Below are positions 5,224-53,356 of a stretch of DNA of 64,000 nucleotides, one piece after another (positions within the stretch are counted from its first letter, which is position 1; the number at the start of each line of letters is the position of its first letter). The stretch is from Escherichia phage vB_EfeM_pEP20: the sequence record OQ743992; one strand, written 5' to 3'. The translations under genes were made by a program, and so were the position numbers. The notes under the pieces were generated by a model, which saw only the letters and a list, made by a program, of their open reading frames with translations, did no database searches and was not told the DNA's origin.

Positions 5224-5721
5224 TCAAGCACAGTTTGATTTCATTACCTTATGGATTCTTTTTTCAGCATCTTCATAAGTTTCTTTAGTAATAAACTTAA
5301 TTGCTGCAATATTGGCATTGTAGAAGAGTCTGAGCTTAGAGTCAATCCTTTTTGTCATGACATCGAATTTATGTTGAAGGTTTGCTTCGCCATAAACTAG
5401 ACCACCTTTCGTGTAGTAGGTTTGGATAATGTAAAAGTCAAAAAATTCTTTTCCAAAGCTCTCAATATCCTTTTTAATATACTCAGAAGAAGTCTCATAA
5501 GTCATCCAATCACTCTCCTTAGTGACTACCTTCTTCCGAGTCTTACCAGCAACTTTTCTTTTGGTCACACTATTAAGCTGTTTCTTTCCGATATAATATT
5601 GTCCGGTTTTCTTACAGTGTACTAAATAGACAAAGCCAAAATGTTTAGTGGGGTCAACTTCCCCACATAAAGATACCCAATGACCATAGGTAGGACAATT
5701 GCCAAATCCTTTAATCTTCAT
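5224..5721 (-). CDS. putative GIY-YIG family endonuclease (free-standing homing-endonuclease-like)
   Basis: N-terminal FGFVYLVHCKKTGQYYIGKK fits the GIY-(10-11 aa)-YIG pattern, followed by a basic region. Confidence 0.5.
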   Translation of the reverse strand: MKIKGFGNCPTYGHWVSLCGEVDPTKHFGFVYLVHCKKTGQYYIGKKQLNSVTKRKVAGKTRKKVVTKESDWMTYETSSEYIKKDIESFGKEFFDFYIIQTYYTKGGLVYGEANLQHKFDVMTKRIDSKLRLFYNANIAAIKFITKETYEDAEKRIHKVMKSNCA

Positions 5722-7893: not shown

Positions 7894-8183
7894 GATATTC
7901 TCCGATATACTTGATATTCAAACACATTTTCTTTAATTATAAACAGCCAACCAATATTATGTCGAGGTATAGTAATAGTGACTGTTATTATACTGTGATG
8001 GAACTTTTCTTCTACCTCAACGCCTCCATCACATTTCATGTAGAGCATTCTATAGAACCTATCAACCTTTGTCAAACACTCTTCCTGAAATTCATTTAAA
8101 CTTTTTTCTTCAAAGAAGGGTATGAACCCCTCTCTTTTATAACTATCACTCAGTTTCGAATGGGCAGTCATCTGCATCCTCAC
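7890..8183 (-). CDS. hypothetical protein (97 aa)
   Basis: Track ORF. Confidence 0.4.
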   Translation of the reverse strand: MRMQMTAHSKLSDSYKREGFIPFFEEKSLNEFQEECLTKVDRFYRMLYMKCDGGVEVEEKFHHSIITVTITIPRHNIGWLFIIKENVFEYQVYRRIS

Positions 8184-10137
8184 TTAATACAGGTGGAATC
8201 GTTGAGCTTTGACGCTGCTCTTCAGTATAAACTTCACCAGTCTCACGGTCAAACACTTCATCCTCGTAATGAGGTAAGGAGTCATCATAATGGTCTTCAG
8301 CTTCACCAATACCAAACTGTTGACGAATATTCTCTGCTGCACCATCAATGTCAACACCACACCCAGAAGCTTTGATAAGACGTCCTGTGTCTGGATTGTA
8401 CCAAGTATGACCAGCGATACCTGTTGACTTACCATGACGACGACACTTAGTTAACTTGATTTTTGTCAAGTTTTTCTTAACAGGGTCTGGGTCAACCTTG
8501 TTACGCATTAACAGAATGTTGTTCATGGAAATCTGGAAGTATGCACCAGAACCCTTAATGTCCTCTTCAGAGATATCTCCACCTTCAGAGTTAGCTTTCT
8601 GACCACCTGCACTCTTACGAACGTGACAGACGTTAACCTGTGCATACTGATAGCGTTTGCAACGACGCAGTAGTTCAGACAAAACTTCCTCTTCATCAGT
8701 ATCAGAACGTGACAGAGCCAACGTAATAGGGTCAAGAATAATAATCTTACAGTCTAAACTGTTAACAAGATAGTCAACAAATTCCAGCAGGTTATCTTGG
8801 TCAATTGCCCCTTGATGGTCAACGATATGGATACGACGGCCTTTAGATAGTTCTGCGTGTGCTTCCTTCAATTCATCCCAATCACGTTCGTCATAAGGAA
8901 TCTCAGAAATCTGCTTGCTTAGGTGAATTGCACAGAGCATCTCCATCAACTCTTCATAGGTGTCTTCTACAGGAATTACACCGATATTGTAATCAGTTTC
9001 TTTCCAAGCTGAATAAATCATCTCACGAGTGTAAGCTGACTTACCTACTGAAGATGGTGCTGCAATAGTTGTAATCTCACCTAAACCATAACCACCATAA
9101 GTCAGCCTGTTCAAATCCCCGAAAGATTCTGGGAAAGGAATCAATGGAATCTGACCACGATTCTTCATTGCCTCAAAACCATCTGCAAAGTTCTTGATAC
9201 CAGCAGGACAGTAACGAGGTGCATTGTAGATACGCTGCTTAAATCCTTCCAGAACTGTGTCTTTCTCTTTATAGAACTTTGTCCACCATTCATTAAGGTC
9301 TTTTACACCTTCTGGATACTGGAACAAACGAACCTTCTCAATAGGTAAGATGCCAGCAGCCTCTTTTGTTGCTTTAGCACCTGCTTCATCGTTATCAAAG
9401 CACAAGTAAATCTCATCAAATGATGTGATGTACTGATAGTTGTCTTTGATAGACTTAATGTTTGCACCTGATGGAACAGATACGTGACAGTAATTCTTAC
9501 GACGAGACTTATCTTTAATTGCCAGAGAAGTCATGTAGATAGCTGTCGCACATTCCATCTCACCTTCCCAGATGAATAGTCGGTTCCCACCTTCTGGAGC
9601 AATCCATGAACCGAACATTGCCAGTTCACCTTTAATATCTCCAACACCACCTGAAAAGTCTTTTAACTTACCACGTAGGTGTTCTTTTGGATGGTCTTCT
9701 GGGTAACGGTGACGAACACGGTAACCAACATGTTCTAGCTTGCCATCTTCATTACGTTTGTAAGTCGGATAGAAATGTGCATCAATTTCACCGTCACTAT
9801 CAATGTCAACCTTAATACCTAAACGCTCAAGGACTTTTGCAGGAATCTTCCTGTCTTTCAAATCCATTGCTTCTAGGTTTTCTTTTACATCATCTAAATC
9901 CATTCCACGGAAAGTACGGTTTTTATTATCTGAACCAGTAGAATAAGTGCTCACGATTTGTCCTTTATCAAAATCCCACTCTGGGAAACCTTTGTTACAG
10001 CTAAAGCAAGTCATCGAATAAGAACCATCGTCATGATGGTAGATTGAACCCGCATCTGATGAACCACAACGTGGACATGCACAATGACCAATAAACTGAC
10101 CAGCCTCTTTCAATTTACGACCTTTAGACATTAGCAC
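8146..10137 (-). CDS. DNA primase-helicase (zinc ribbon + primase + DnaB-like helicase)
   Basis: 663 aa; N-terminal CPRCGSSD...CFSCNKG zinc ribbon, central primase-like region, C-terminal P-loop (APSSVGKSAYT) in a DnaB/gp4-like helicase region. Confidence 0.8.
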   Translation of the reverse strand: MLMSKGRKLKEAGQFIGHCACPRCGSSDAGSIYHHDDGSYSMTCFSCNKGFPEWDFDKGQIVSTYSTGSDNKNRTFRGMDLDDVKENLEAMDLKDRKIPAKVLERLGIKVDIDSDGEIDAHFYPTYKRNEDGKLEHVGYRVRHRYPEDHPKEHLRGKLKDFSGGVGDIKGELAMFGSWIAPEGGNRLFIWEGEMECATAIYMTSLAIKDKSRRKNYCHVSVPSGANIKSIKDNYQYITSFDEIYLCFDNDEAGAKATKEAAGILPIEKVRLFQYPEGVKDLNEWWTKFYKEKDTVLEGFKQRIYNAPRYCPAGIKNFADGFEAMKNRGQIPLIPFPESFGDLNRLTYGGYGLGEITTIAAPSSVGKSAYTREMIYSAWKETDYNIGVIPVEDTYEELMEMLCAIHLSKQISEIPYDERDWDELKEAHAELSKGRRIHIVDHQGAIDQDNLLEFVDYLVNSLDCKIIILDPITLALSRSDTDEEEVLSELLRRCKRYQYAQVNVCHVRKSAGGQKANSEGGDISEEDIKGSGAYFQISMNNILLMRNKVDPDPVKKNLTKIKLTKCRRHGKSTGIAGHTWYNPDTGRLIKASGCGVDIDGAAENIRQQFGIGEAEDHYDDSLPHYEDEVFDRETGEVYTEEQRQSSTIPPVLSEDADDCPFETE

Positions 10138-10332: not shown

Positions 10333-11076
10333 TTAAATTTTCAGGATAGCTCTTAGCTTACTTTCAAGGTCTGCAAGAGTACCATTATTATGGATAATGT
10401 CACGCGCATATTTGGTAGAAATTCCATTTTCTGAAACATGTGATGAAACCTTGTCCACATTGTCTCTTTTTACTTCAATAGTCTGGTGTGCAAATCTACT
10501 CAGCCACTCAGCTTCAGAGTCAAACCTTAAGTCACTGATTAAAACAACACCCTCTTGATTCATAAGTGAACAAGATTCAAAGAAGCGAGCCATTCGTTTT
10601 TCAAGGTCTTTAGCCCAGAATTTGTCACCCATAACTTTACGGATAACTTCGGTGCCCCAAATCTGTTGAATCTGTCTTGATGAGAATTTATACTTTTTAC
10701 TAAATCCAAGACGTGTTAATATGGTAGGTTTAGCAACCTTCTTCAGTTCCATAATTAATCGTCCTGTTAACTCTGACATAAGTTTGAAGTCCGTATGGTA
10801 ACGTTCGCCTCTGAAGGTAAACTCCATAGCTTCTGTAACTTTGAACAGGAGTTCAGAGTATGATAAATCAAAAACCTGTGGAATCTCTTTAGTTTCACCG
10901 TACAGGTCATTCCAAGTCAGGTCAAATATCTTTGATGCAGAGAGTTTAAGATTATCTGCATAGGCCATCACTTCAACATTGTAGCCGTACTCATCCTCTA
11001 AGATGTTCTTCACAATAGAACATGAAGTGTCTTTTCCAGAACGTGCCTTTCCAGTAAATGCAATAATATTACTCAT
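10333..11076 (-). CDS. deoxynucleoside monophosphate kinase (T4 gp1-like, putative)
   Basis: 247 aa; P-loop FTGKARSGKDT at N-terminus and overall layout resembling phage dNMP kinases (recalled). Confidence 0.65.
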   Translation of the reverse strand: MSNIIAFTGKARSGKDTSCSIVKNILEDEYGYNVEVMAYADNLKLSASKIFDLTWNDLYGETKEIPQVFDLSYSELLFKVTEAMEFTFRGERYHTDFKLMSELTGRLIMELKKVAKPTILTRLGFSKKYKFSSRQIQQIWGTEVIRKVMGDKFWAKDLEKRMARFFESCSLMNQEGVVLISDLRFDSEAEWLSRFAHQTIEVKRDNVDKVSSHVSENGISTKYARDIIHNNGTLADLESKLRAILKI

Positions 11077-48080: not shown

Positions 48081-48156
48081 TGGAGAATCCGAAGGGACTC
48101 GAACCCTTATAAACCTGTTTTGCAGACAGGCACATAGCCATTTCTGTCACGGATTC
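48081..48156 (-). tRNA. tRNA-Cys (anticodon GCA)
   Basis: Hand-folded: perfect 7-bp acceptor, anticodon loop CTGCAAA, T-arm AAGGG-TTCGAGT-CCCTT, discriminator U, CCA encoded. Confidence 0.75.
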
Positions 48157-48160
48157 AAAT

Positions 48161-48253
48161 TGGAGGAAGATACCAGACTTGAACTGATACACCGATTTCT
48201 CAGCTACTGGCAGTTTAGCAAACTGCTCCCTTACCTTTTAGGGTTAATCTTCC
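48161..48253 (-). tRNA. tRNA-Ser (anticodon GCT), class II
   Basis: Perfect acceptor GGAAGAT/ATCTTCC, anticodon loop TTGCTAA, about 20-nt variable arm, T-loop TTCAAGT. Confidence 0.75.
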
Positions 48254-48254
48254 A

Positions 48255-48989
48255 TTATTTCTGTAATGCGTTCTTCATTTCTGGTGTTGCAATAGTGTCA
48301 ATTACACCAGTTTTACAAGCATCATCAAACCAGTCTGGTAAGATACCTGCTAAGAACCCATTGATATTCGTTTTAAGGTACTCTGCAATAAGGGCAGCTT
48401 CTTCTTCAATCATCTGCACAACTTCATCTGCATAAGCTGTAATCTTTGAGATACCTTCATTAATCTTGCTAACAGCTTGGTTAGCTAAATCAGAAATAGT
48501 ATCAAGACCTTTATCAATAGCATCTTGTAAGTCACTTAATACATCGTTAACACCGTCTAGTGCACTGTTAATTGTGTCAATAGCTTTTTGACCATATTCT
48601 GTAGCAACACCCATAATACCACTAAATGGTGTACAACCAACTTGCTCTCCTGCTGCACCCATAACATTGGAATATCCTTTTGCTACCTGCATACGTGATG
48701 AAAACTCATCAATGGACTTTTGACCGTAATCTGTCAGTGTCTTAGTGGTTGATGTAGTGCTTGTCAGACTCGTTGTAAAGCTGTTAAGCAGAACTGTTGT
48801 AAGTCCAGCGGCAACAAGTTTATCCTTTATTGTAGGGTCTGTTACAGAGCTAATAGAGCTTACAAGTGATGTAGAGGCAGCTACGGTTCCACCGAGAACT
48901 GCTGCACCAGTAATAAGGGGATTAGAAAACCCTCTACCGGTTTTTAAGAGACCAAAAATCTCCTTACCTTGTTCTGTCATCTCTTTCAT
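48255..48989 (-). CDS. hypothetical protein with hydrophobic segment and coiled-coil region, embedded in the tRNA array
   Basis: Start taken at ATG 48989 (MKEMTEQ...) behind AAAGGTG; the longer track start would overlap a tRNA-like gene. Confidence 0.45.
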   Translation of the reverse strand: MKEMTEQGKEIFGLLKTGRGFSNPLITGAAVLGGTVAASTSLVSSISSVTDPTIKDKLVAAGLTTVLLNSFTTSLTSTTSTTKTLTDYGQKSIDEFSSRMQVAKGYSNVMGAAGEQVGCTPFSGIMGVATEYGQKAIDTINSALDGVNDVLSDLQDAIDKGLDTISDLANQAVSKINEGISKITAYADEVVQMIEEEAALIAEYLKTNINGFLAGILPDWFDDACKTGVIDTIATPEMKNALQK

Positions 48990-49005
48990 TAAGCACCTTT
49001 GAAAT

Positions 49006-49080
49006 TGGTAGTTCAGTGGGATTTGAACCCTCTTCTCATGTTTTTCAGACACGCGCTTTAACCATATAAGCTACTTGGAC
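49006..49080 (-). tRNA. tRNA-like gene with Phe-type anticodon arm (GAA); acceptor stem does not pair, possible pseudo-tRNA
   Basis: Good D-arm (GCTT/AAGC) and anticodon arm (loop CTGAAAA), T-loop TTCAAAT, but 5' GTCCAAG cannot pair with 3' TGAACTA. Confidence 0.35.
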
Positions 49081-49087
49081 TATAAAT

Positions 49088-49163
49088 TGGGGTGACCTAC
49101 GGGATTTGAACCCGTATAGACCATGTTCACAGCATGGGTCATTACCATTTATGATAAGGCCAC
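49088..49163 (-). tRNA. tRNA-His (anticodon GTG)
   Basis: Acceptor GTGGCCT/AGGTCAC, D-stem TCAT/ATGA, anticodon loop CTGTGAA, T-arm ACGGG-TTCAAAT-CCCGT. Confidence 0.7.
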
Positions 49164-49194
49164 ATTTAAGGACTCTCGTAAGAATCCTTAGAAG

Positions 49195-49270
49195 TGGCAG
49201 CGGCATAAGGATTTGAACCTTAATAAGACAGCTTCAGAGACTGCTGCATTGCCAGTTATGCTATACCGCT
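49195..49270 (-). tRNA. tRNA-Gln (anticodon CTG)
   Basis: Acceptor AGCGGTA/TGCCGCT, D-stem GCAT/ATGC, anticodon loop CTCTGAA. Confidence 0.6.
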
Positions 49271-49275
49271 AAATT

Positions 49276-49354
49276 TGGTACTCCATATCGGATTCGAACC
49301 GATACATAACACAGATTTTAAGTCTGGCCTCTCTGCCAATTGGAGTAATGGAGC
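49276..49354 (-). tRNA. tRNA with Leu-type anticodon TAA but short variable arm (atypical)
   Basis: Acceptor GCTCCAT/ATGGAGT, perfect T-arm ATCGG-TTCGAAT-CCGAT, Leu-like D-loop AATTGGCAGAG, anticodon loop CTTAAAA, discriminator A, variable region only about 7 nt. Confidence 0.5.
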
Positions 49355-49356
49355 AT

Positions 49357-49432
49357 TGGCGGGGGATGCTGGAATTGAACCAGCTTCTTCGATTTCAAAG
49401 ACCGAGGTTTTAACCTTGTAAACTAATCCCCT
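49357..49432 (-). tRNA. tRNA-Gln (anticodon TTG)
   Basis: D-stem GTTT/AAAC, anticodon arm TCGGT-CTTTGAA-ATCGA, T-arm GCTGG-TTCAATT-CCAGC; first acceptor pair mismatched. Confidence 0.6.
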
Positions 49433-49440
49433 TTAAATCT

Positions 49441-49998
49441 TTACTTTCTTAGTGGATGAATAAAGAATGCCAACATAACTCTTTCCCTTGAGAATGCTCT
49501 TTCTTCTGGGACAACACTTTTTAGTTTCCATCCAATATAAATTCTCCAGTAAAACTGTTTACCAAAGACTTTAATTGATGGGATAAAAGCGAATAATCCC
49601 CAAGCATTACTGTTCCACATTAGGAGATAACCAGTCTGATTATCTTCAGGGTCAGAACTTACGTTGATATTACCTTTCCACTTAGTAACATCTTTTACAT
49701 CTCTTCCTAATACATGGTAAGAGAAGTTATAAGCTTTGTTTCTCCAGAGCCATCCAACTCTCTGCATATAAACACCAAGCTTACCAATCTTTCTAATCTT
49801 AGCCCATCTCTCAACGTGGCCTTTGTCACCATCAATCGGGTTGTCATAGGTCTCCATCCATCTGAATCCAAAAGGTAGATGCCCTTTCTTCTCGCTGTAG
49901 AATGGAACCACAAATGGTGCTAAGATTACTGCTAAGATTGCTGCAAATGGTTCTAGCAAAGCTAGGAAAATCCATGAAGCATATTTTAAATATCTCAT
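49441..49998 (-). CDS. hypothetical membrane protein (185 aa) inside tRNA array
   Basis: N-terminal hydrophobic helices (IFLALLEPFAAILAVILAPFVVPF). Confidence 0.45.
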   Translation of the reverse strand: MRYLKYASWIFLALLEPFAAILAVILAPFVVPFYSEKKGHLPFGFRWMETYDNPIDGDKGHVERWAKIRKIGKLGVYMQRVGWLWRNKAYNFSYHVLGRDVKDVTKWKGNINVSSDPEDNQTGYLLMWNSNAWGLFAFIPSIKVFGKQFYWRIYIGWKLKSVVPEERAFSRERVMLAFFIHPLRK

Positions 49999-50237
49999 CG
50001 TCTAATCCTTGTAAGGAGATAAGTGTTATTATTTGTTTCTGAGTTTTCTGGTAACATTGTCTCAAAATTGACACTTTTAAGTTGTCTTCCACCAAAGTAA
50101 TGACCAATAAATTTTTCTACTCTTATTGGGTCGCATTCCCAGCCGACTTTCAAGAAAATGTGGGTATCTATAGTGGGAACCCTTACAAACTCAACACTAT
50201 TGGAATTTTCATGTTCAACGACTATTAATGTTTGCAT
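49995..50237 (-). CDS. hypothetical protein (80 aa) inside tRNA array
   Basis: Track ORF with overlap to downstream gene. Confidence 0.4.
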   Translation of the reverse strand: MQTLIVVEHENSNSVEFVRVPTIDTHIFLKVGWECDPIRVEKFIGHYFGGRQLKSVNFETMLPENSETNNNTYLLTRIRR

Positions 50238-50245
50238 AAATCCCT

Positions 50246-50321
50246 CTTACTTAATTGGCGCAGGATAAGGGATTCGAACCCCTATTAACAGCTTCGTAGA
50301 CTGTTGCTCTATCCATTTGAA
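50246..50321 (-). tRNA. tRNA-Arg (anticodon ACG)
   Basis: Perfect acceptor GCAGGAT/ATCCTGC, anticodon loop CTACGAA, T-loop TTCGAAT. Confidence 0.7.
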
Positions 50322-50326
50322 CTAAT

Positions 50327-50404
50327 CCTGCAAAATTGGTGTTCCAAGACGGATTCGAACCGTCACTAGTACAAGGTTTGAGCTTGCATCCTCTGCCAAT
50401 TGGG
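50327..50404 (-). tRNA. tRNA with Leu-type anticodon CAA but short variable arm (atypical)
   Basis: Acceptor GTTCCAG/TTGGAAC, Leu-like D-loop AATTGGCAGAG, anticodon arm GCAAG-CTCAAAC-CTTGT, perfect T-arm GACGG-TTCGAAT-CCGTC, discriminator A, 6-nt variable region. Confidence 0.5.
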
Positions 50405-50405
50405 A

Positions 50406-50480
50406 TACTGGAACATGGTACTCACTAAAGGACTTGAACCTTTTTCTTCATCTTGTAAGGGTGATGTTTTACCATATAAA
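50406..50480 (-). tRNA. tRNA-Val (anticodon TAC)
   Basis: Acceptor ACTCGCT/AGTGAGT, D-stem GTTT/AAAC, anticodon loop CTTACAA, T-arm AAAGG-TTCAAGT-CCTTT. Confidence 0.65.
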
Positions 50481-50577
50481 CTAAGCGAGTGTGAAAAGAG
50501 GTCTGAAGTTGTGCCGCTAACTCAACTCCGTGGAATTTGTTACGGTCTTCAGTTGACTCAAAGCGGTCTTTCACTTG

Positions 50578-50653
50578 ACCTCTAAATTGGTGCTCCCACA
50601 AGGATTCGAACCCTGATAAGTTGCTTACAAGGCAACCGTAATAGCCAATTATA
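50578..50653 (-). tRNA. tRNA-Thr (anticodon TGT)
   Basis: Acceptor GCTCCTA/TGGGAGC, anticodon arm GTTGC-CTTGTAA-GCAAC, T-loop TTCGAAT. Confidence 0.65.
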
Positions 50654-50660
50654 CGATAGG

Positions 50661-50735
50661 AGCATTAATTTGGAGCATCCAGAGGGAATCGAACCCTCAA
50701 CCTCAGTTTGGAAGACTGTAATTTTCCCGTTTAAA
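50661..50735 (-). tRNA. tRNA-Gly (anticodon TCC)
   Basis: Perfect acceptor GCATCCA/TGGATGC, anticodon loop CTTCCAA, T-arm GAGGG-TTCGATT-CCCTC. Confidence 0.7.
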
Positions 50736-50741
50736 CTATGG

Positions 50742-50817
50742 ATGCACTAATTGGTGGAGTCACTGAGAATTGAACTCAGTTCCCAAGTTTGCAAAACTCG
50801 AATTTTAACCATATAAA
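50742..50817 (-). tRNA. tRNA-Ala (anticodon TGC)
   Basis: Acceptor GGGGTCA/TGACTCC with the G3-U70 pair, anticodon loop TTTGCAA, T-arm CTGAG-TTCAATT-CTCAG. Confidence 0.75.
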
Positions 50818-50824
50818 CTATGAC

Positions 50825-50900
50825 CCCCATTGTTTGGTACAGGTGGATGGAATTGAACCCATCGTCTTACTGATTAAGAGTCAGCCGCATAACCATTTTG
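50825..50900 (-). tRNA. tRNA-Lys (anticodon CTT)
   Basis: Acceptor GCAGGTG/CACCTGT, anticodon arm GCTGA-CTCTTAA-TCAGT, T-stem GATGG/CCATC. Confidence 0.6.
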
Positions 50901-50907
50901 CTACACC

Positions 50908-50984
50908 TGCATTAATTTGGTACACCTAGAGAGATTCGAACTCACACTGAGCAGATTCTAAGTCTGCTGCCTCTACCAGTTGGG
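50908..50984 (-). tRNA. tRNA with Leu-type anticodon TAG but short variable arm (atypical)
   Basis: Acceptor GCACCTA/TAGGTGT, Leu-like D-loop CAACTGGTAGAG, perfect anticodon arm GCAGA-CTTAGAA-TCTGC, T-loop TTCGAAT, discriminator A, 5-nt variable region. Confidence 0.5.
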
Positions 50985-51249
50985 CTATAGGTGCATTAAA
51001 TCTTTTTAGAGAACTTCTAAGAACCTAAGCAACAAGGTTCCACAACAAGCTGTAATAACCTTAGAAGCCCTCTAAAAAGACCTAAATAGGTCTTTGCATA
51101 GTCTTGTTTAATCCGGTGACTAGAACCTTTGGAGAGCTTGATATTATCTCTTCTCCGTGACACCTACTAGGTGCTTTATCAGTGTGTACGACAATACACG
51201 AGGGATAAACCGAAAATGCGAGCAAGCATGGACGGTATAAATCTTATTA

Positions 51250-51339
51250 GGCGGTAAGTAAAGGAGTCGAACCCTCACCGTATCTCTACAGTGGCAACTG
51301 TTTTCAAGACAGTTTGGCTACCATTAGCCGCTACCTACC
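51250..51339 (-). tRNA. tRNA-Ser (anticodon TGA), class II
   Basis: Acceptor GGTAGGT/ACTTACC, perfect anticodon arm ACTGT-CTTGAAA-ACAGT, 20-nt variable arm, T-loop TTCGACT; CCA not fully encoded. Confidence 0.65.
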
Positions 51340-51352
51340 CCTAATAAGACTT

Positions 51353-51435
51353 TGGCATGGGACGGAGGAGTTGAACCACTTTGAAACGGTTTTGGAGGCC
51401 GTTGCTCATGCCTTAGAGTCTTAACATCGTCCCAT
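51353..51435 (-). tRNA. tRNA-like gene with Trp-type anticodon loop (CCA) and expanded 5' D region (atypical)
   Basis: Perfect 7-bp acceptor ATGGGAC/GTCCCAT with discriminator G and CCA; loop CTCCAAA on stem ACGG/CCGT; about 8 extra nt before the D-arm and a weak T-stem. Confidence 0.4.
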
Positions 51436-51587
51436 ACTTTAATTCGAAGCTTACCGTATTTTCGCAACACTGTAAAGCCCCTTCTCAGATTATTTACATG
51501 TTCTGGAAAACATGAGATACAGACCACCTCCTTACACGGAGACCCGATAAGGTCGTCTAAGCAATCTGCTAACTATTTGGCACACCC

Positions 51588-51664
51588 TACAGGATTCGAA
51601 CCTGTAACTAACGATTTAGAAGACCGTTGCTCTATCCAATTGAACTAAGGGTGCATTAATCTTT
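51588..51664 (-). tRNA. tRNA-Arg (anticodon TCT)
   Basis: Acceptor GCACCCT/AGGGTGT, D-stem GTTC/GAGC, anticodon arm ACGGT-CTTCTAA-ATCGT, T-arm ACAGG-TTCGAAT-CCTGT. Confidence 0.7.
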
Positions 51665-51991
51665 AAAGACTCTCTTAGAAAGCCCTTAAAGATGCCCACC
51701 TTATTAATCATACCGTGGGCTAGTACGCCAAATTCTTTGATGAGGGATTGGAAGACCTCACTGGTGTTTAGCCTATCAAGCTACTGCCAGAAAAACATTG
51801 TCGTTTGCATTTATTTTAAATTTGCAAAATAGACGCTACGCAACGAAAACTATTCAGAATATGTACAACAAATTTCCCCACATTGTGTTACGTCTAACGC
51901 TCATGTATTGGTGTTTGAATTATACATATTATGAATCATTTTTAGTTACTATAAAGCGGTCACATCTCAATGTCAACAACTTTATTGAAAT

Positions 51992-52067
51992 TGGTGCTGG
52001 TAGGTGGAATCGAACCACCGATATTCCCTTATCAGGGGAGTGTTATAACCTTCTTAACTATACCAGC
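51992..52067 (-). tRNA. tRNA-Ile (anticodon GAT)
   Basis: Perfect acceptor GCTGGTA/TACCAGC, D-stem GTTA/TAAC, anticodon loop CTGATAA, T-arm GGTGG-TTCGATT-CCACC. Confidence 0.7.
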
Positions 52068-52068
52068 T

Positions 52069-52145
52069 TGGAGGTTCAGATGGGAATCGAACCCACATTC
52101 ATAGGGCTTATGAAACCCCTGCATTACCTTATCTGCGACTGAACC
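52069..52145 (-). tRNA. tRNA-Met (anticodon CAT)
   Basis: Acceptor GGTTCAG/CTGAACC, anticodon arm with three consecutive G-C pairs and loop TTCATAA, T-arm GTGGG-TTCGATT-CCCAT. Confidence 0.65.
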
Positions 52146-52149
52146 ATAT

Positions 52150-52225
52150 TGGTAGAAGTAGAGGGATTCGAACCCATCGCCTGTCAGATTAAAAGTCTGC
52201 CGCATCACCATTCTGCTACACTTCC
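52150..52225 (-). tRNA. tRNA-Lys (anticodon TTT)
   Basis: Acceptor GGAAGTG/TACTTCT (two G-U pairs), anticodon loop CTTTTAA, T-loop TTCGAAT with a weak stem. Confidence 0.55.
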
Positions 52226-52229
52226 ATTA

Positions 52230-52373
52230 AATTATCTTTGTAGATAAGCTACCCAGACTTGCTTAAGGTCTGTAGCGATGTGCCTTTTTGGGTTTAAATC
52301 TAGAATTTACCCTTTCACCCTTTGTGGTCGCATACTCACAGGTAAGCTTAATAACTTATCTACAAAGATAATT
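52230..52373. repeat. 19-bp perfect inverted repeat (AATTATCTTTGTAGATAAG) enclosing about 106 bp
   Basis: Arms at 52230-52248 and 52355-52373 are exact reverse complements; the enclosed sequence holds hairpin CCCAGAC-TTGCTTAAG-GTCTG. Confidence 0.6.
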
Positions 52374-52374
52374 A

Positions 52375-52506
52375 CCAGACCGTTGTTTATCATCTTAAGT
52401 GCTACCATTACACCAACTCGACATCTGCCGAGTGAAGGAATCGAACCTTCGCCTTTTCTTTACCGGAGAAATAGATTGTTTAAAGTTTGCTGTAAACGGT
52501 CTTCTG
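52375..52506 (-). ncRNA. candidate Y-RNA-like ncRNA U1 with embedded tRNA-like module (YrlA-like architecture)
   Basis: Minus-sense 5' CAGAAGACCGUUUACAGCAAAC ... ACGGUCUGG 3' with termini pairing (AGACCGU/ACGGUCU); interior has hairpin UUUCU-CCGGUAA-AGAAA, T-arm GAAGG-UUCGAUU-CCUUC, closed acceptor-like hairpin ACUCGGC-AGAU-GUCGAGU, D-arm GUG-UAAUGGUAG-CAC. Confidence 0.5.
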
Positions 52507-52519
52507 TAAATTTGTTGAG

Positions 52520-52604
52520 CCAGACCAAGTTTTAAATTTTTCAAAATTAAATTGGCTTGAAATTTTAAGTAACTTGCTGAATTTGGTCTTCTGCTCCTTT
52601 AAAG
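52520..52604 (-). ncRNA. candidate Y-RNA-like ncRNA U2
   Basis: Minus-sense 5' CAGAAGACCAAAUUCAGCAAG ... UUGGUCUGG 3'; terminal stem AGACCAA/UUGGUCU covaries with U1/U3. Confidence 0.45.
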
Positions 52605-52690
52605 AATACTCGTAAGAACTCTTTAAGGGAGGGGCTAAATAGCCCTCTCAAACATCATTTTGAAATACTTATTATAATTTGGCGGTTACG

Positions 52691-52768
52691 AAGGGATTCG
52701 AACCCTCATCATCTCCCGTGACAGGGGAGTATTTTAACCAGATTAAACTACATAACCTTCATTTGGTG
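52691..52768 (-). tRNA. tRNA-Asp (anticodon GTC)
   Basis: Acceptor GGTTATG/CGTAACC, perfect anticodon arm CTCCC-CTGTCAC-GGGAG, T-loop TTCGAAT. Confidence 0.7.
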
Positions 52769-52774
52769 TGCCGT

Positions 52775-52862
52775 GTAGGAGTCGAACCTACCGAGTCTTA
52801 ATGACAAGGGATTTACAGTCCCCACCGCTACCATCTACGGGATAACGACACATTTAAATTTG
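52775..52862 (-). tRNA. tRNA-Tyr (anticodon GTA), class II
   Basis: Acceptor GTGTCGT/ACGGCAC, anticodon loop CTGTAAA, long variable arm, T-arm GTAGG-TTCGACT-CCTAC. Confidence 0.65.
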
Positions 52863-52871
52863 GCGGTTAGT

Positions 52872-52948
52872 CAGGGATTCGAACCCTGTGCCATTCGCTT
52901 AACAGGCGACCGCACATACCTTATGTGCTTCCTAACCTTAATACATTG
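52872..52948 (-). tRNA. tRNA-Asn (anticodon GTT)
   Basis: D-stem GCAC/GTGC, anticodon loop CTGTTAA, T-arm CAGGG-TTCGAAT-CCCTG; last acceptor pair mismatched. Confidence 0.65.
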
Positions 52949-52959
52949 CCAGACCGTGT

Positions 52960-53020
52960 TTTTTCTTTTATCCACAAAAAAGTAGTTTGTTGCTGAATAC
53001 GGTCTTCTGCAAAATTGGAG
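52960..53020 (-). ncRNA. candidate Y-RNA-like ncRNA U3
   Basis: Minus-sense 5' CAGAAGACCGUAUUCAGCAAC ... CACGGUCUGG 3'; internal hairpin CUUUUUU-GUGGAU-AAAAGA. Confidence 0.45.
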
Positions 53021-53026
53021 GCGGGT

Positions 53027-53103
53027 GCAGGAGTCGAACCTGCCGATACCATGCTAATGAGACATGTGAGACGCCCTTTCTCTATACCCGCAATTCTTAA
53101 TGA
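53027..53103 (-). tRNA. tRNA with anticodon CAT (second Met, or Ile2 if lysidine-modified)
   Basis: Anticodon arm CATGT-CTCATTA-GCATG, T-arm GCAGG-TTCGACT-CCTGC; first acceptor pair mismatched. Confidence 0.6.
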
Positions 53104-53114
53104 CCAGACCAAAT

Positions 53115-53187
53115 CTCTTCTTTGTCCGATTTCGTGTCAGATGAATAAGCTTAAGTTTGCTGTAATTGGTCTTCTGTCAAAACTGGC
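53115..53187 (-). ncRNA. candidate Y-RNA-like ncRNA U4
   Basis: Minus-sense 5' CAGAAGACCAAUUACAGCAAAC ... UUGGUCUGG 3'; same conserved 5' core and covarying terminal stem as U2. Confidence 0.45.
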
Positions 53188-53194
53188 GTTCCAG

Positions 53195-53272
53195 AAGGGA
53201 TTTGAACCCTCAAATATCCACTTTGAAAGAGTGGTGACTTTACCATTTTGTCTACTGGAACATTAATTTGGT
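53195..53272 (-). tRNA. tRNA-Glu (anticodon TTC)
   Basis: Perfect acceptor GTTCCAG/CTGGAAC, perfect anticodon arm CCACT-CTTTCAA-AGTGG, T-loop TTCAAAT. Confidence 0.7.
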
Positions 53273-53279
53273 CTCTGTT

Positions 53280-53356
53280 GGAGGACTTGAACCTCCGGCC
53301 TTACCGCCCCAAACGGAACGCTCTACCAAGCTGAGCTAAACAGAGATAAACTTTTC
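53280..53356 (-). tRNA. tRNA-Pro (anticodon TGG)
   Basis: Perfect acceptor CTCTGTT/AACAGAG, D-stem GCTC/GAGC, anticodon loop TTTGGGG, T-arm GGAGG-TTCAAGT-CCTCC. Confidence 0.7.

Follow-up and report, generated by a model that had tools for sequence, protein, structure and literature searches.

Background

In a canonical class I elongator tRNA (Rfam family RF00005) the acceptor branch follows the 7/5 rule, with a 7-bp acceptor stem joined by a 2-nt linker to the D-arm and stacked on a 5-bp T-stem, and it is this branch that RNase P, EF-Tu, the synthetases and the ribosome are thought to measure. The tRNAs that break the rule have so far been mainly tRNA-Sec, the allo-tRNAs and a few metagenomic phage tRNAs. 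Mukai et al. (2017) described allo-tRNAs of the 8/4 and 9/3 types, (8/4) tRNA-Ser and tRNA-His in phages, and bulged (8/4) tRNA-Sec and tRNA-Cys; some of the non-7/5 tRNAs lie in phage tRNA clusters, and 8/4 and 9/3 members have been shown to work in E. coli translation. The allo-tRNAs carry a long variable arm and a tRNA-Sec-like D-arm (long stem, tetraloop), and they have Ser or Ala identity. A second kind of departure is that of bacterial tRNA-His, in which an unusual RNase P cleavage leaves a G-1:C73 pair and thus an 8-bp acceptor stem. Phage tRNA arrays also contain pseudogenes and chimeric remnants of tRNAs.

Here we examine a tRNA-Phe gene from the genome of Escherichia phage vB_EfeM_pEP20 (sequence record OQ743992), of which a stretch of 64,000 nucleotides, referred to below as the window, was analysed. 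We propose that this single conserved tRNA-Phe(GAA) of a 26-gene array has a non-canonical cloverleaf with a displaced closing helix and serves translation, a reading that we regard as probable. The gene resembles a canonical class I elongator tRNA in its standard D-arm and anticodon arm, its T-loop, its encoded CCA, and its U33 and A37, and differs from one in that the 5′ strand of the acceptor stem is offset from the D-arm, an A is bulged, the T-stem has three Watson-Crick pairs instead of five, and the linker measures 1 or 3-4 nt, depending on the reading, rather than 2. The longer acceptor stem gained at the expense of the T-stem is a trait of the non-7/5 tRNAs of Mukai et al., as is the single bulged A in some of their members. 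Unlike an allo-tRNA, however, it has a 6-nt variable region, a 4-bp D-stem, a 9-nt D-loop and a Phe anticodon; its bulge lies in the 5′ strand of the acceptor stem and not at position 51a, and it reaches 12 pairs only when the pair between positions -1 and 73 is counted. Judged by its sequence, it is not an allo-tRNA. It shares with tRNA-His a nucleotide at -1 that can pair with the discriminator in every lineage, and the CCA would therefore directly follow the helix, but it has Phe identity and the T at -1 is the norm for its array. Like pseudogenes and chimeric remnants it has a low covariance-model score, the lowest among the called tRNAs of the array; unlike them, it has kept all its helices and has undergone compensatory evolution across five lineages.

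Results

The tRNA array and its only tRNA-Phe gene

The window is 98-99% identical to the Felix O1-like phages of E. coli and Salmonella (Ounavirinae, Felixounavirus). The tRNA array called by ARAGORN runs from 48081 to 53345 on the - strand; its 26 genes serve 19 amino acids and include one tRNA-Phe(GAA) only. The initial annotation had marked a tRNA-like gene here with a well-formed D-arm, a well-formed anticodon arm (loop CTGAAAA, anticodon GAA) and a T-loop, and all of these are borne out by the sequence and by ARAGORN, which calls a tRNA-Phe GAA at 49081..49006 (-). The gene and several of its parts are the following.

49006..49081, - strand: tRNA-Phe(GAA) gene, 76 nt including the encoded CCA, called by ARAGORN and Rfam RF00005
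49055..49071, - strand: D-arm, stem GCTT/AAGC (4 bp) and 9-nt loop ATATGGTTA with G18 G19; invariant and 100% paired
49037..49053, - strand: anticodon arm, 5-bp stem and loop CTGAAAA, anticodon GAA at 49046-49044
49018..49030, - strand: T-arm, three G:C pairs (GGG 49030-49028 with CCC 49020-49018) and T-loop TTCAAAT
49008-49006, - strand: encoded CCA, preceded by discriminator A49009; 3′ end of the tRNA-Phe

Read along the - strand, the gene consists of a T before the 5′ end and then AGTCCA, A, GT, A, GCTT, ATATGGTTA, AAGC, G, CGTGT, CTGAAAA, ACATG, AGAAGA, GGG, TTCAAAT, CCC, AC, TGAACT, A and CCA. The variable region is 6 nt long, and the nucleotides of the tRNA core are present in the sequence and in the invariant alignment columns (U8, A14, G18 G19, A21, G53 T54 Ψ55 C56, A58 and C61), as is a 7-nt anticodon loop with U33 and a purine at position 37, which is A37 in the window.

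The Rfam RF00005 match spans 49080..49010 and scores 40.1 bits against a gathering score of 29 (E = 5.5e-6; a local search with the Rfam tRNA model gave E = 1.9e-7), and no other tRNA that ARAGORN calls in the array scores as low. The gene is 98-100% identical to the annotated tRNA-Phe of Felixounavirus genomes, and many relatives annotate the locus as tRNA-Phe (e.g., Felix O1, wV8, SUSP2, Mordin and phiEa104). None of the annotations or literature examined for this tRNA comments on an offset acceptor geometry. Between the tRNA-Lys(TTT) and tRNA-Asp genes of the same array, at 52426-52490 (-), lies a sub-threshold tRNA-like sequence (Rfam 24.7 bits against the gathering score of 29; no ARAGORN call) that has a good T-arm and anticodon stem, a much reduced D-arm, three acceptor mismatches, and a loop CCGGUAA with C33; it may be a decayed tRNA. 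Promoter-like sites upstream of the array and a terminator-like site after tRNA-Cys were found in numbers at the level expected by chance.

Downstream of the tRNA-Phe, and separate from it, lies a protein-coding gene.

48255..48989, - strand: DUF7217/phrog_2114 ORF, 244 aa

The start of this gene at 48989, as first proposed, is indeed the ATG of the 244-aa ORF; it opens 17 nt past the CCA, behind an AAAGGUG ribosome-binding site, and does not overlap the tRNA. A longer version of the ORF from GTG 49052, and the annotation in wV8 that overlaps the tRNA, use an upstream start. The ORF lies among the tRNA genes of the array, flanked by tRNA-Phe and tRNA-Ser(GCT); its product weakly resembles tape-measure and ‘GTP-binding domain’ PHROGs, and depending on the GenBank record it is labelled a membrane protein, a holin or a predicted receptor-binding protein. 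The neighbour downstream of tRNA-Phe is instead a tRNA-Lys in phiEa104 and a tRNA-Ser in L067, an uncultivated lineage described below. Since the tRNA-Phe is kept in both of these without the adjacent gene, its conservation is independent of the DUF7217 gene. The idea that its 3′ end had been remodelled by that gene start finds no support, given the gap between them and the same architecture in phiEa104 and L067.

The acceptor stem pairs in a shifted register

The acceptor stem had been described as non-pairing, on the grounds that GTCCAAG (49080-49074) cannot pair with TGAACTA (49016-49010). The observation is right for the canonical register, in which U49073 and A49072 serve as U8 and A9 and the window sequence forms a terminal G·U only, but the conclusion drawn from it is wrong: the acceptor strands do pair once the 5′ strand is moved 1-2 nt upstream of where the D-arm would place it. 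The fold returned by ARAGORN starts at A49081 and pairs AGUCCA with UGAACU in five Watson-Crick pairs and one C·A, leaving a 3-nt linker and a 3-bp T-stem. Software thus returns an alternative fold with a paired acceptor stem, the outcome that had been named at the start as refuting a non-pairing stem. The two strands are as follows.

49076..49082, - strand: 5′ strand of the acceptor helix, T49082 (position -1) and A49081-A49076 (AGTCCA)
49009..49015, - strand: 3′ strand of the acceptor helix, T49015-T49010 and A49009 (discriminator, or partner of T49082)

In the window, A49081-A49076 face T49015-T49010, and T49082:A49009 is a possible extra pair. Taken alone, six of seven pairs at one of a few offsets would be expected with a chance of ~0.05-0.1 by a rough estimate; the match in a single sequence is only modestly improbable, and relatives were therefore collected. 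By eye, the sequence downstream of the T-arm does not contain CTTGGAC, the complement of GTCCAAG, and the gene does not contain an uninterrupted 9-bp acceptor stem.

Covariation across five lineages

The relatives comprised 251-275 GenBank phage records, 29 IMG/VR contigs and 17 metagenome loci. The tRNA-Phe is present in every relative examined (251 GenBank Ounavirinae and 46 IMG/VR and metagenome loci), and these collapse to a few distinct sequences from Felixounavirus, Suspvirus, Mooglevirus and Kolesnikvirus. A fifth lineage, L067, is an uncultivated contig of 84.9 kb that was found by a scan for the D-arm pattern and that shares the His-Phe-Ser gene order. Two alignments were built, one of six distinct variants and one of nine. 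The acceptor strands vary between the lineages and remain complementary in the shifted register.

Felix O1/wV8: 5′ UAGUCCA, 3′ UGGACUA
SUSP2: 5′ UGGGUUA, 3′ UAACCCG
Mordin/Moogle: 5′ UAGCUCA, 3′ UGGGCUA
phiEa104: 5′ CGGUCUA, 3′ UAGACCG
L067: 5′ UAGGUGG, 3′ CAACCUA (one G·A mismatch)

It is this covariation among the relatives that gives the shifted stem its significance. In the six-variant alignment, columns 3-9 and 70-76 are 95% paired and five of the seven pairs have changed on both sides, a count that rises to six of seven once L067 is added. With the two-pair extension treated in the next section, the closing helix in the shifted register is 96% paired in the nine-variant alignment, with compensatory changes in 7/9 pairs. 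The whole shifted and extended structure is 98.4% paired there, 11 of its 21 pairs having changed on both sides; none of 500 shuffles reached 98.4%, and every control in which the strands were slid gave at most 44%. The anticodon stem is 100% paired, with changes on both sides in four of its five pairs, while no variant departs from the anticodon GAA or from CUGAA in the loop, and a purine (A or G) occupies position 37 throughout. The two alignments agree on the registers. RNAalifold, with no structure supplied, gives the same non-canonical consensus cloverleaf; the minimum free energy (MFE) folds of the Felix O1 consensus and of SUSP2 are this same cloverleaf, and the MFE fold of phiEa104 retains the shifted 7-bp acceptor helix and the 3-bp T-stem. 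The alignment of the homologous locus, which had been proposed as a check on the unpaired stem, thus reveals an acceptor helix that pairs and covaries across five lineages.

Two other registers were considered. The canonical one, with G49080 as position 1, was rejected, as its helix is only 17-19% paired across the relatives (19% in the nine-variant alignment). The exact register of ARAGORN (seven positions from A49081, with an A·C seventh pair and a four-layer T-stem) has the six good pairs in common with the shifted helix, but neither its seventh pair nor its T-stem layer of A·A or A·G is ever a standard pair.

A scan of genome contigs gave no match to the tRNA-Phe in bacterial or archaeal genomes. 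Scanning IMG/VR with a pattern of the T-arm and anticodon returned only the same 29 loci again, a metagenome scan for distant homologues returned only known variants and one chimera, and the D-arm pattern on its own gave L067 as its sole new lineage, its other matches being unrelated sequences or tRNAs in the ordinary register. The L067 gene (IMGVR_UViG_3300045988_048813, 8159-8233) has the bulged A, the 3-bp T-stem and a loop CUGAAGA, and the contig has no close relative in GenBank. Its tRNA-Phe adjoins tRNA-His and stands directly before tRNA-Ser(GCT), without a DUF7217 gene, and terminase-like, portal-like and protease-like ORFs lie within 2-7 kb of it.

Two further loci bear on the history of such genes. 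The chimera, L041 (OGVK01000038.1, ~5341-5370), is a tRNA-Phe of the phiEa104 type up to the T-loop and then has a foreign 3′ end, …GGGTTCGAATCCGAATGCCCCCGCCA. It shows that recombination or deletion occurs between neighbouring tRNA genes in arrays of this kind, and it suggests such a fusion as one possible historical origin of the offset acceptor strand. On an unrelated viral contig, L066 (IMGVR_UViG_3300044577_000032, ~10810-10900), we found a tRNA in the ordinary register that reads GACCAAG-TA-GCTTATATGG; its 5′ strand and D-arm nearly match GTCCAAG-TA-GCTTATATGG of the window, and it pairs normally with CTTGGTC. The likeness may be a coincidence, or the 5′ half of the Ounavirinae gene may once have been part of a canonical tRNA.

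Bulge, extended helix and short T-stem

Between the shifted stem and the D-arm, the 5′ strand continues past an unpaired A into two further pairs, which involve nucleotides with other roles in the textbook cloverleaf.

49075, - strand: bulged A, invariant in 9/9 distinct variants and unpaired in the RNAalifold consensus
49073..49074, - strand: G49074 and U49073 (the textbook U8), predicted to pair with C49016 and A49017 and so to lengthen the acceptor helix
49016..49017, - strand: A49017 and C49016, canonical T-stem positions 64-65, here partners of the extended 5′ strand

The first pair of the extension (column pair 11:69, G49074:C49016) is G:C in six variants and U:A in three, and the second (column pair 12:68, U49073:A49017) is U:A in six and U·G in three; by lineage, Felixounavirus and Suspvirus have the extension as G:C followed by U:A, and Mooglevirus, Kolesnikvirus and L067 have it as U:A followed by U·G. 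RNAalifold and the MFE fold of the consensus predict it independently of each other. The T-stem consists only of GGG/CCC because positions 64-65 are paired with the extended 5′ strand. Among the canonical T-stem pairs, 49:65 (column pair 53:69) can form in 6/9 variants and is C·A in Mooglevirus, Kolesnikvirus and L067, and 50:64 (column pair 54:68) forms in 0/9, being A·A or A·G throughout. The support for the extension is thinner than that for the shifted stem and probably reflects a single evolutionary event.

On this prediction the acceptor branch is a bulged 9/3 if T49082:A49009 is counted (9 + 3 = 12 pairs with -1:73) and an 8/3 with a bulge and 11 layers if it starts at A49081 (8 + 3 = 11); an equivalent description that leaves U8 free is 7(+bulge)/4. 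With 11 layers the CCA end would fall short by one layer, a deficit that retention of the -1:73 pair or stacking of the bulged A into the helix would make good; that the bulged A does so is speculation on our part. A 3-bp T-stem is weak. The remaining 25 members of the array are ordinary 7/5 tRNAs, with a linker of 2 nt and seven acceptor-stem positions in the usual register, and the oddity is therefore specific to Phe. Weak T-stems occur elsewhere in the array as well, in the tRNA-Lys genes CTT and TTT (50835-50910 and 52150-52225, -), where ARAGORN pairs 2-3 positions only; both have acceptor stems and linkers in the normal register.

Mature ends

Where the mature tRNA begins determines which of the two counts applies. 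Most of the other tRNAs in the array have, like tRNA-Phe, a T at -1 and an A after the CCA, and ARAGORN shows a complete N73-CCA end in 23 of those 25; a 5′ end at A49081 fits this pattern, as tRNA-Phe then has the same two flanking bases and an encoded purine-CCA. The preference of E. coli RNase P for U at -1 and its docking on RCCA also favour A49081. On the side of a 5′ end at T49082, positions -1 and 73 can pair in all lineages, and the branch reaches 12 layers only with that pair. The two positions are complementary in 9/9 variants (U:A in seven, U·G in one, C:G in one), and they are so in 12/25 of the other tRNAs as well, because the spacers are T-rich. The covariation of -1:73 was set aside as proof of a retained -1 nucleotide; it is too weak for this, because a purine discriminator and a preceding T at -1 are usual among the tRNAs of the array.

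A start at T49082 would also allow a canonical 7/5 mature tRNA with a 7-bp acceptor stem, a 4-nt linker and C49008 as the discriminator, whose encoded ‘CAA...’ would be trimmed before the CCA-adding enzyme of the host rebuilt the CCA. The T49082:A49009 pair is indeed kept in all lineages (as U:A, U·G or C:G), a stack on G49:C65 is possible in Felixounavirus and Suspvirus, and some T4 tRNAs need CCA addition. We nevertheless consider such a molecule very improbable. The array encodes complete CCA ends in nearly all its other members, its usual T at -1 makes a pairable -1:73 commonplace, Mooglevirus, Kolesnikvirus and L067 cannot form the T-stem pairs 49:65 and 50:64, and a C73 discriminator would be unusual for Phe.

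The neighbouring tRNA-His(GTG) (49088-49163, -) is a canonical 7/5 tRNA with C73 and without G-1, the T before its G1 being unable to pair with C73. G-1 is normally required by E. coli HisRS. In several related GenBank records the gene appears as tRNA-OTHER or pseudo, and in Sf14 its tRNAscan-SE His isotype score is 31.6, below those for Ile2 and Arg.

A private mismatch in the window copy

The one imperfect pair among the six that ARAGORN forms in the window arises from a substitution that no relative shares.

49013, - strand: private substitution, A where all relatives have G; turns C49078:G, the fourth acceptor pair, into C·A

Over the aligned region the window and wV8 differ only here (TGAACTA in the window, TGGACTA in wV8). 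For the 49 nt centred on 49013, 0/251 GenBank records are identical to the window; 208 fall in the 95-99% band and, among the matches listed, all are at 98.0% (one mismatch). The A is likewise found in 0/46 of the IMG/VR and metagenome loci. It is not the cause of the failure of the canonical register, and it only worsened the appearance of the stem.

With A at 49013 the predicted energy of the cloverleaf rises from -16.7 to -9.8 kcal/mol, a loss of ~7 kcal/mol (6.9) in stability, and in the window copy an alternative fold at -10.3 kcal/mol becomes the MFE structure (z-score +0.9). A reading in which the family is functional and the window copy has recently been inactivated, as an incipient pseudogene, or in which A 49013 is an error of sequencing or assembly, draws on this predicted opening in the middle of a 6-7 bp helix, after which the cloverleaf is no longer the MFE structure, and on the absence of the A from every relative; we hold it to be unlikely. 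The nearest relatives diverge by 1-2% over 751 nt around the gene, and about one private change per 76 nt is therefore expected neutrally. C·A mismatches can be tolerated as protonated wobble pairs, the natural variant L022 has one at the neighbouring pair, ARAGORN and Rfam still call the gene, and the rest of it is undegraded. Other changes confined to single sequences are a U·G in phage dune, a U·G in the anticodon stem of ESCO45 and a deletion in the D-loop of L27. Among the polymorphisms within the genus, two keep pairing as G·U (dune and ESCO45) and two give C·A (the window and L022), from which no selection can be inferred because random transitions would give the same split. The change from G to A probably weakens the tRNA without abolishing it; the change could be a polymorphism that is tolerated, a mutation with a mildly deleterious effect or an error of sequencing.

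Discussion

Identity and proposed function of the tRNA-Phe

On sequence evidence the gene is most likely a functional, structurally non-canonical tRNA-Phe(GAA), neither a pseudogene nor the product of remodelling by a neighbour. Three options had been offered at the outset (a pseudo-tRNA, a tRNA with unusual processing, or a remodelled 3′ end), and the second comes nearest to the truth. A pseudo-tRNA finds no support for the gene family, which is present in all relatives examined, keeps GAA and CUGAA invariant and compensates its stem changes; uncompensated stem decay, drift of the loops and patchy presence are not seen in the family, and the window allele has one uncompensated change. Measured against RF00005, the gene scores above the threshold and has a four-helix cloverleaf backed by covariation, and it lacks the canonical arrangement of a 7-bp stem, 2-nt linker and 5-bp T-stem.

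Of the features relevant to PheRS, the sequence shows the GAA anticodon and a discriminator that is a purine (A or G). In tRNAscan-SE the Sf14 homologue scores 13.8 with the Phe isotype model, and several other isotypes score higher. Our literature search found no report of tRNA-seq, end-mapping, expression or charging for Ounavirinae tRNAs, and the paper on the tRNAs of Sf14 does not discuss tRNA structure. In the course that we propose, the gene would be transcribed with the rest of the array, host RNase P would cut 5′ of A49081, where the U at -1 and the purine-CCA fit the array pattern, and exonucleases would trim the 3′ end to the encoded CCA, giving a 76-nt tRNA. Host PheRS would then charge it by way of the GAA anticodon, and it would decode UUC and UUU during infection, probably late. 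A computational study of the Moogle-like phage Sf14 suggested, without direct evidence, that the phage relies late on its own tRNAs.

An acceptor branch that is non-canonical and one layer short, together with the low Phe isotype score, could also be explained if the RNA were shaped like a tRNA and did other work, for example by marking processing sites in the polycistronic array, by acting as a decoy against a host defence that targets tRNAs, or in regulation; the odd branch would then reflect the lack of any use on the ribosome. Mukai et al. raise roles of this kind for some non-7/5 tRNAs, and phage tRNAs are reported to counter tRNA-targeting defences. We find this improbable, because GAA, U33 and a purine at 37 have stayed invariant across five lineages while the stems changed, because the CCA is encoded and U8, A14, G18 G19, T54 Ψ55 C56 and A58 are present, because the gene is the sole Phe tRNA in an array for 19 amino acids and fits the decoding set, and because its conservation is independent of the neighbouring genes.

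Meaning for the Ounavirinae

On a stronger proposal we judge the case to be evenly balanced: that the Ounavirinae, including the Salmonella typing phage Felix O1, use a non-7/5 class I elongator tRNA-Phe that is processed, charged by PheRS, and accepted by EF-Tu and the ribosome in E. coli and Salmonella. The non-7/5 form would be either the bulged 9/3 with the CCA directly on the helix or the 8/3 of 11 layers. Within the literature searchable here we found no description of this structural feature of the Ounavirinae tRNA-Phe.

For the annotation of these genomes, the low covariance-model and isotype scores of tRNA-Phe and of the neighbouring tRNA-His call for caution. The phage does not lack a tRNA-Phe, and its seemingly ‘broken’ stem is the result of a textbook register combined with a private mismatch, on top of a genuine oddity of structure that the entire subfamily shares. 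The cloverleaf of this tRNA-Phe departs from the 7/5 rule, and if the stronger proposal is true, it would be the first non-7/5 tRNA in a cultivable model phage to combine an ordinary short variable loop with a role in reading sense codons. It may be of use for the engineering of tRNA scaffolds, and Felix O1, wV8 and the phages of the BASEL collection would offer an easy test bed for how much variation in the acceptor branch the translation machinery of E. coli tolerates.
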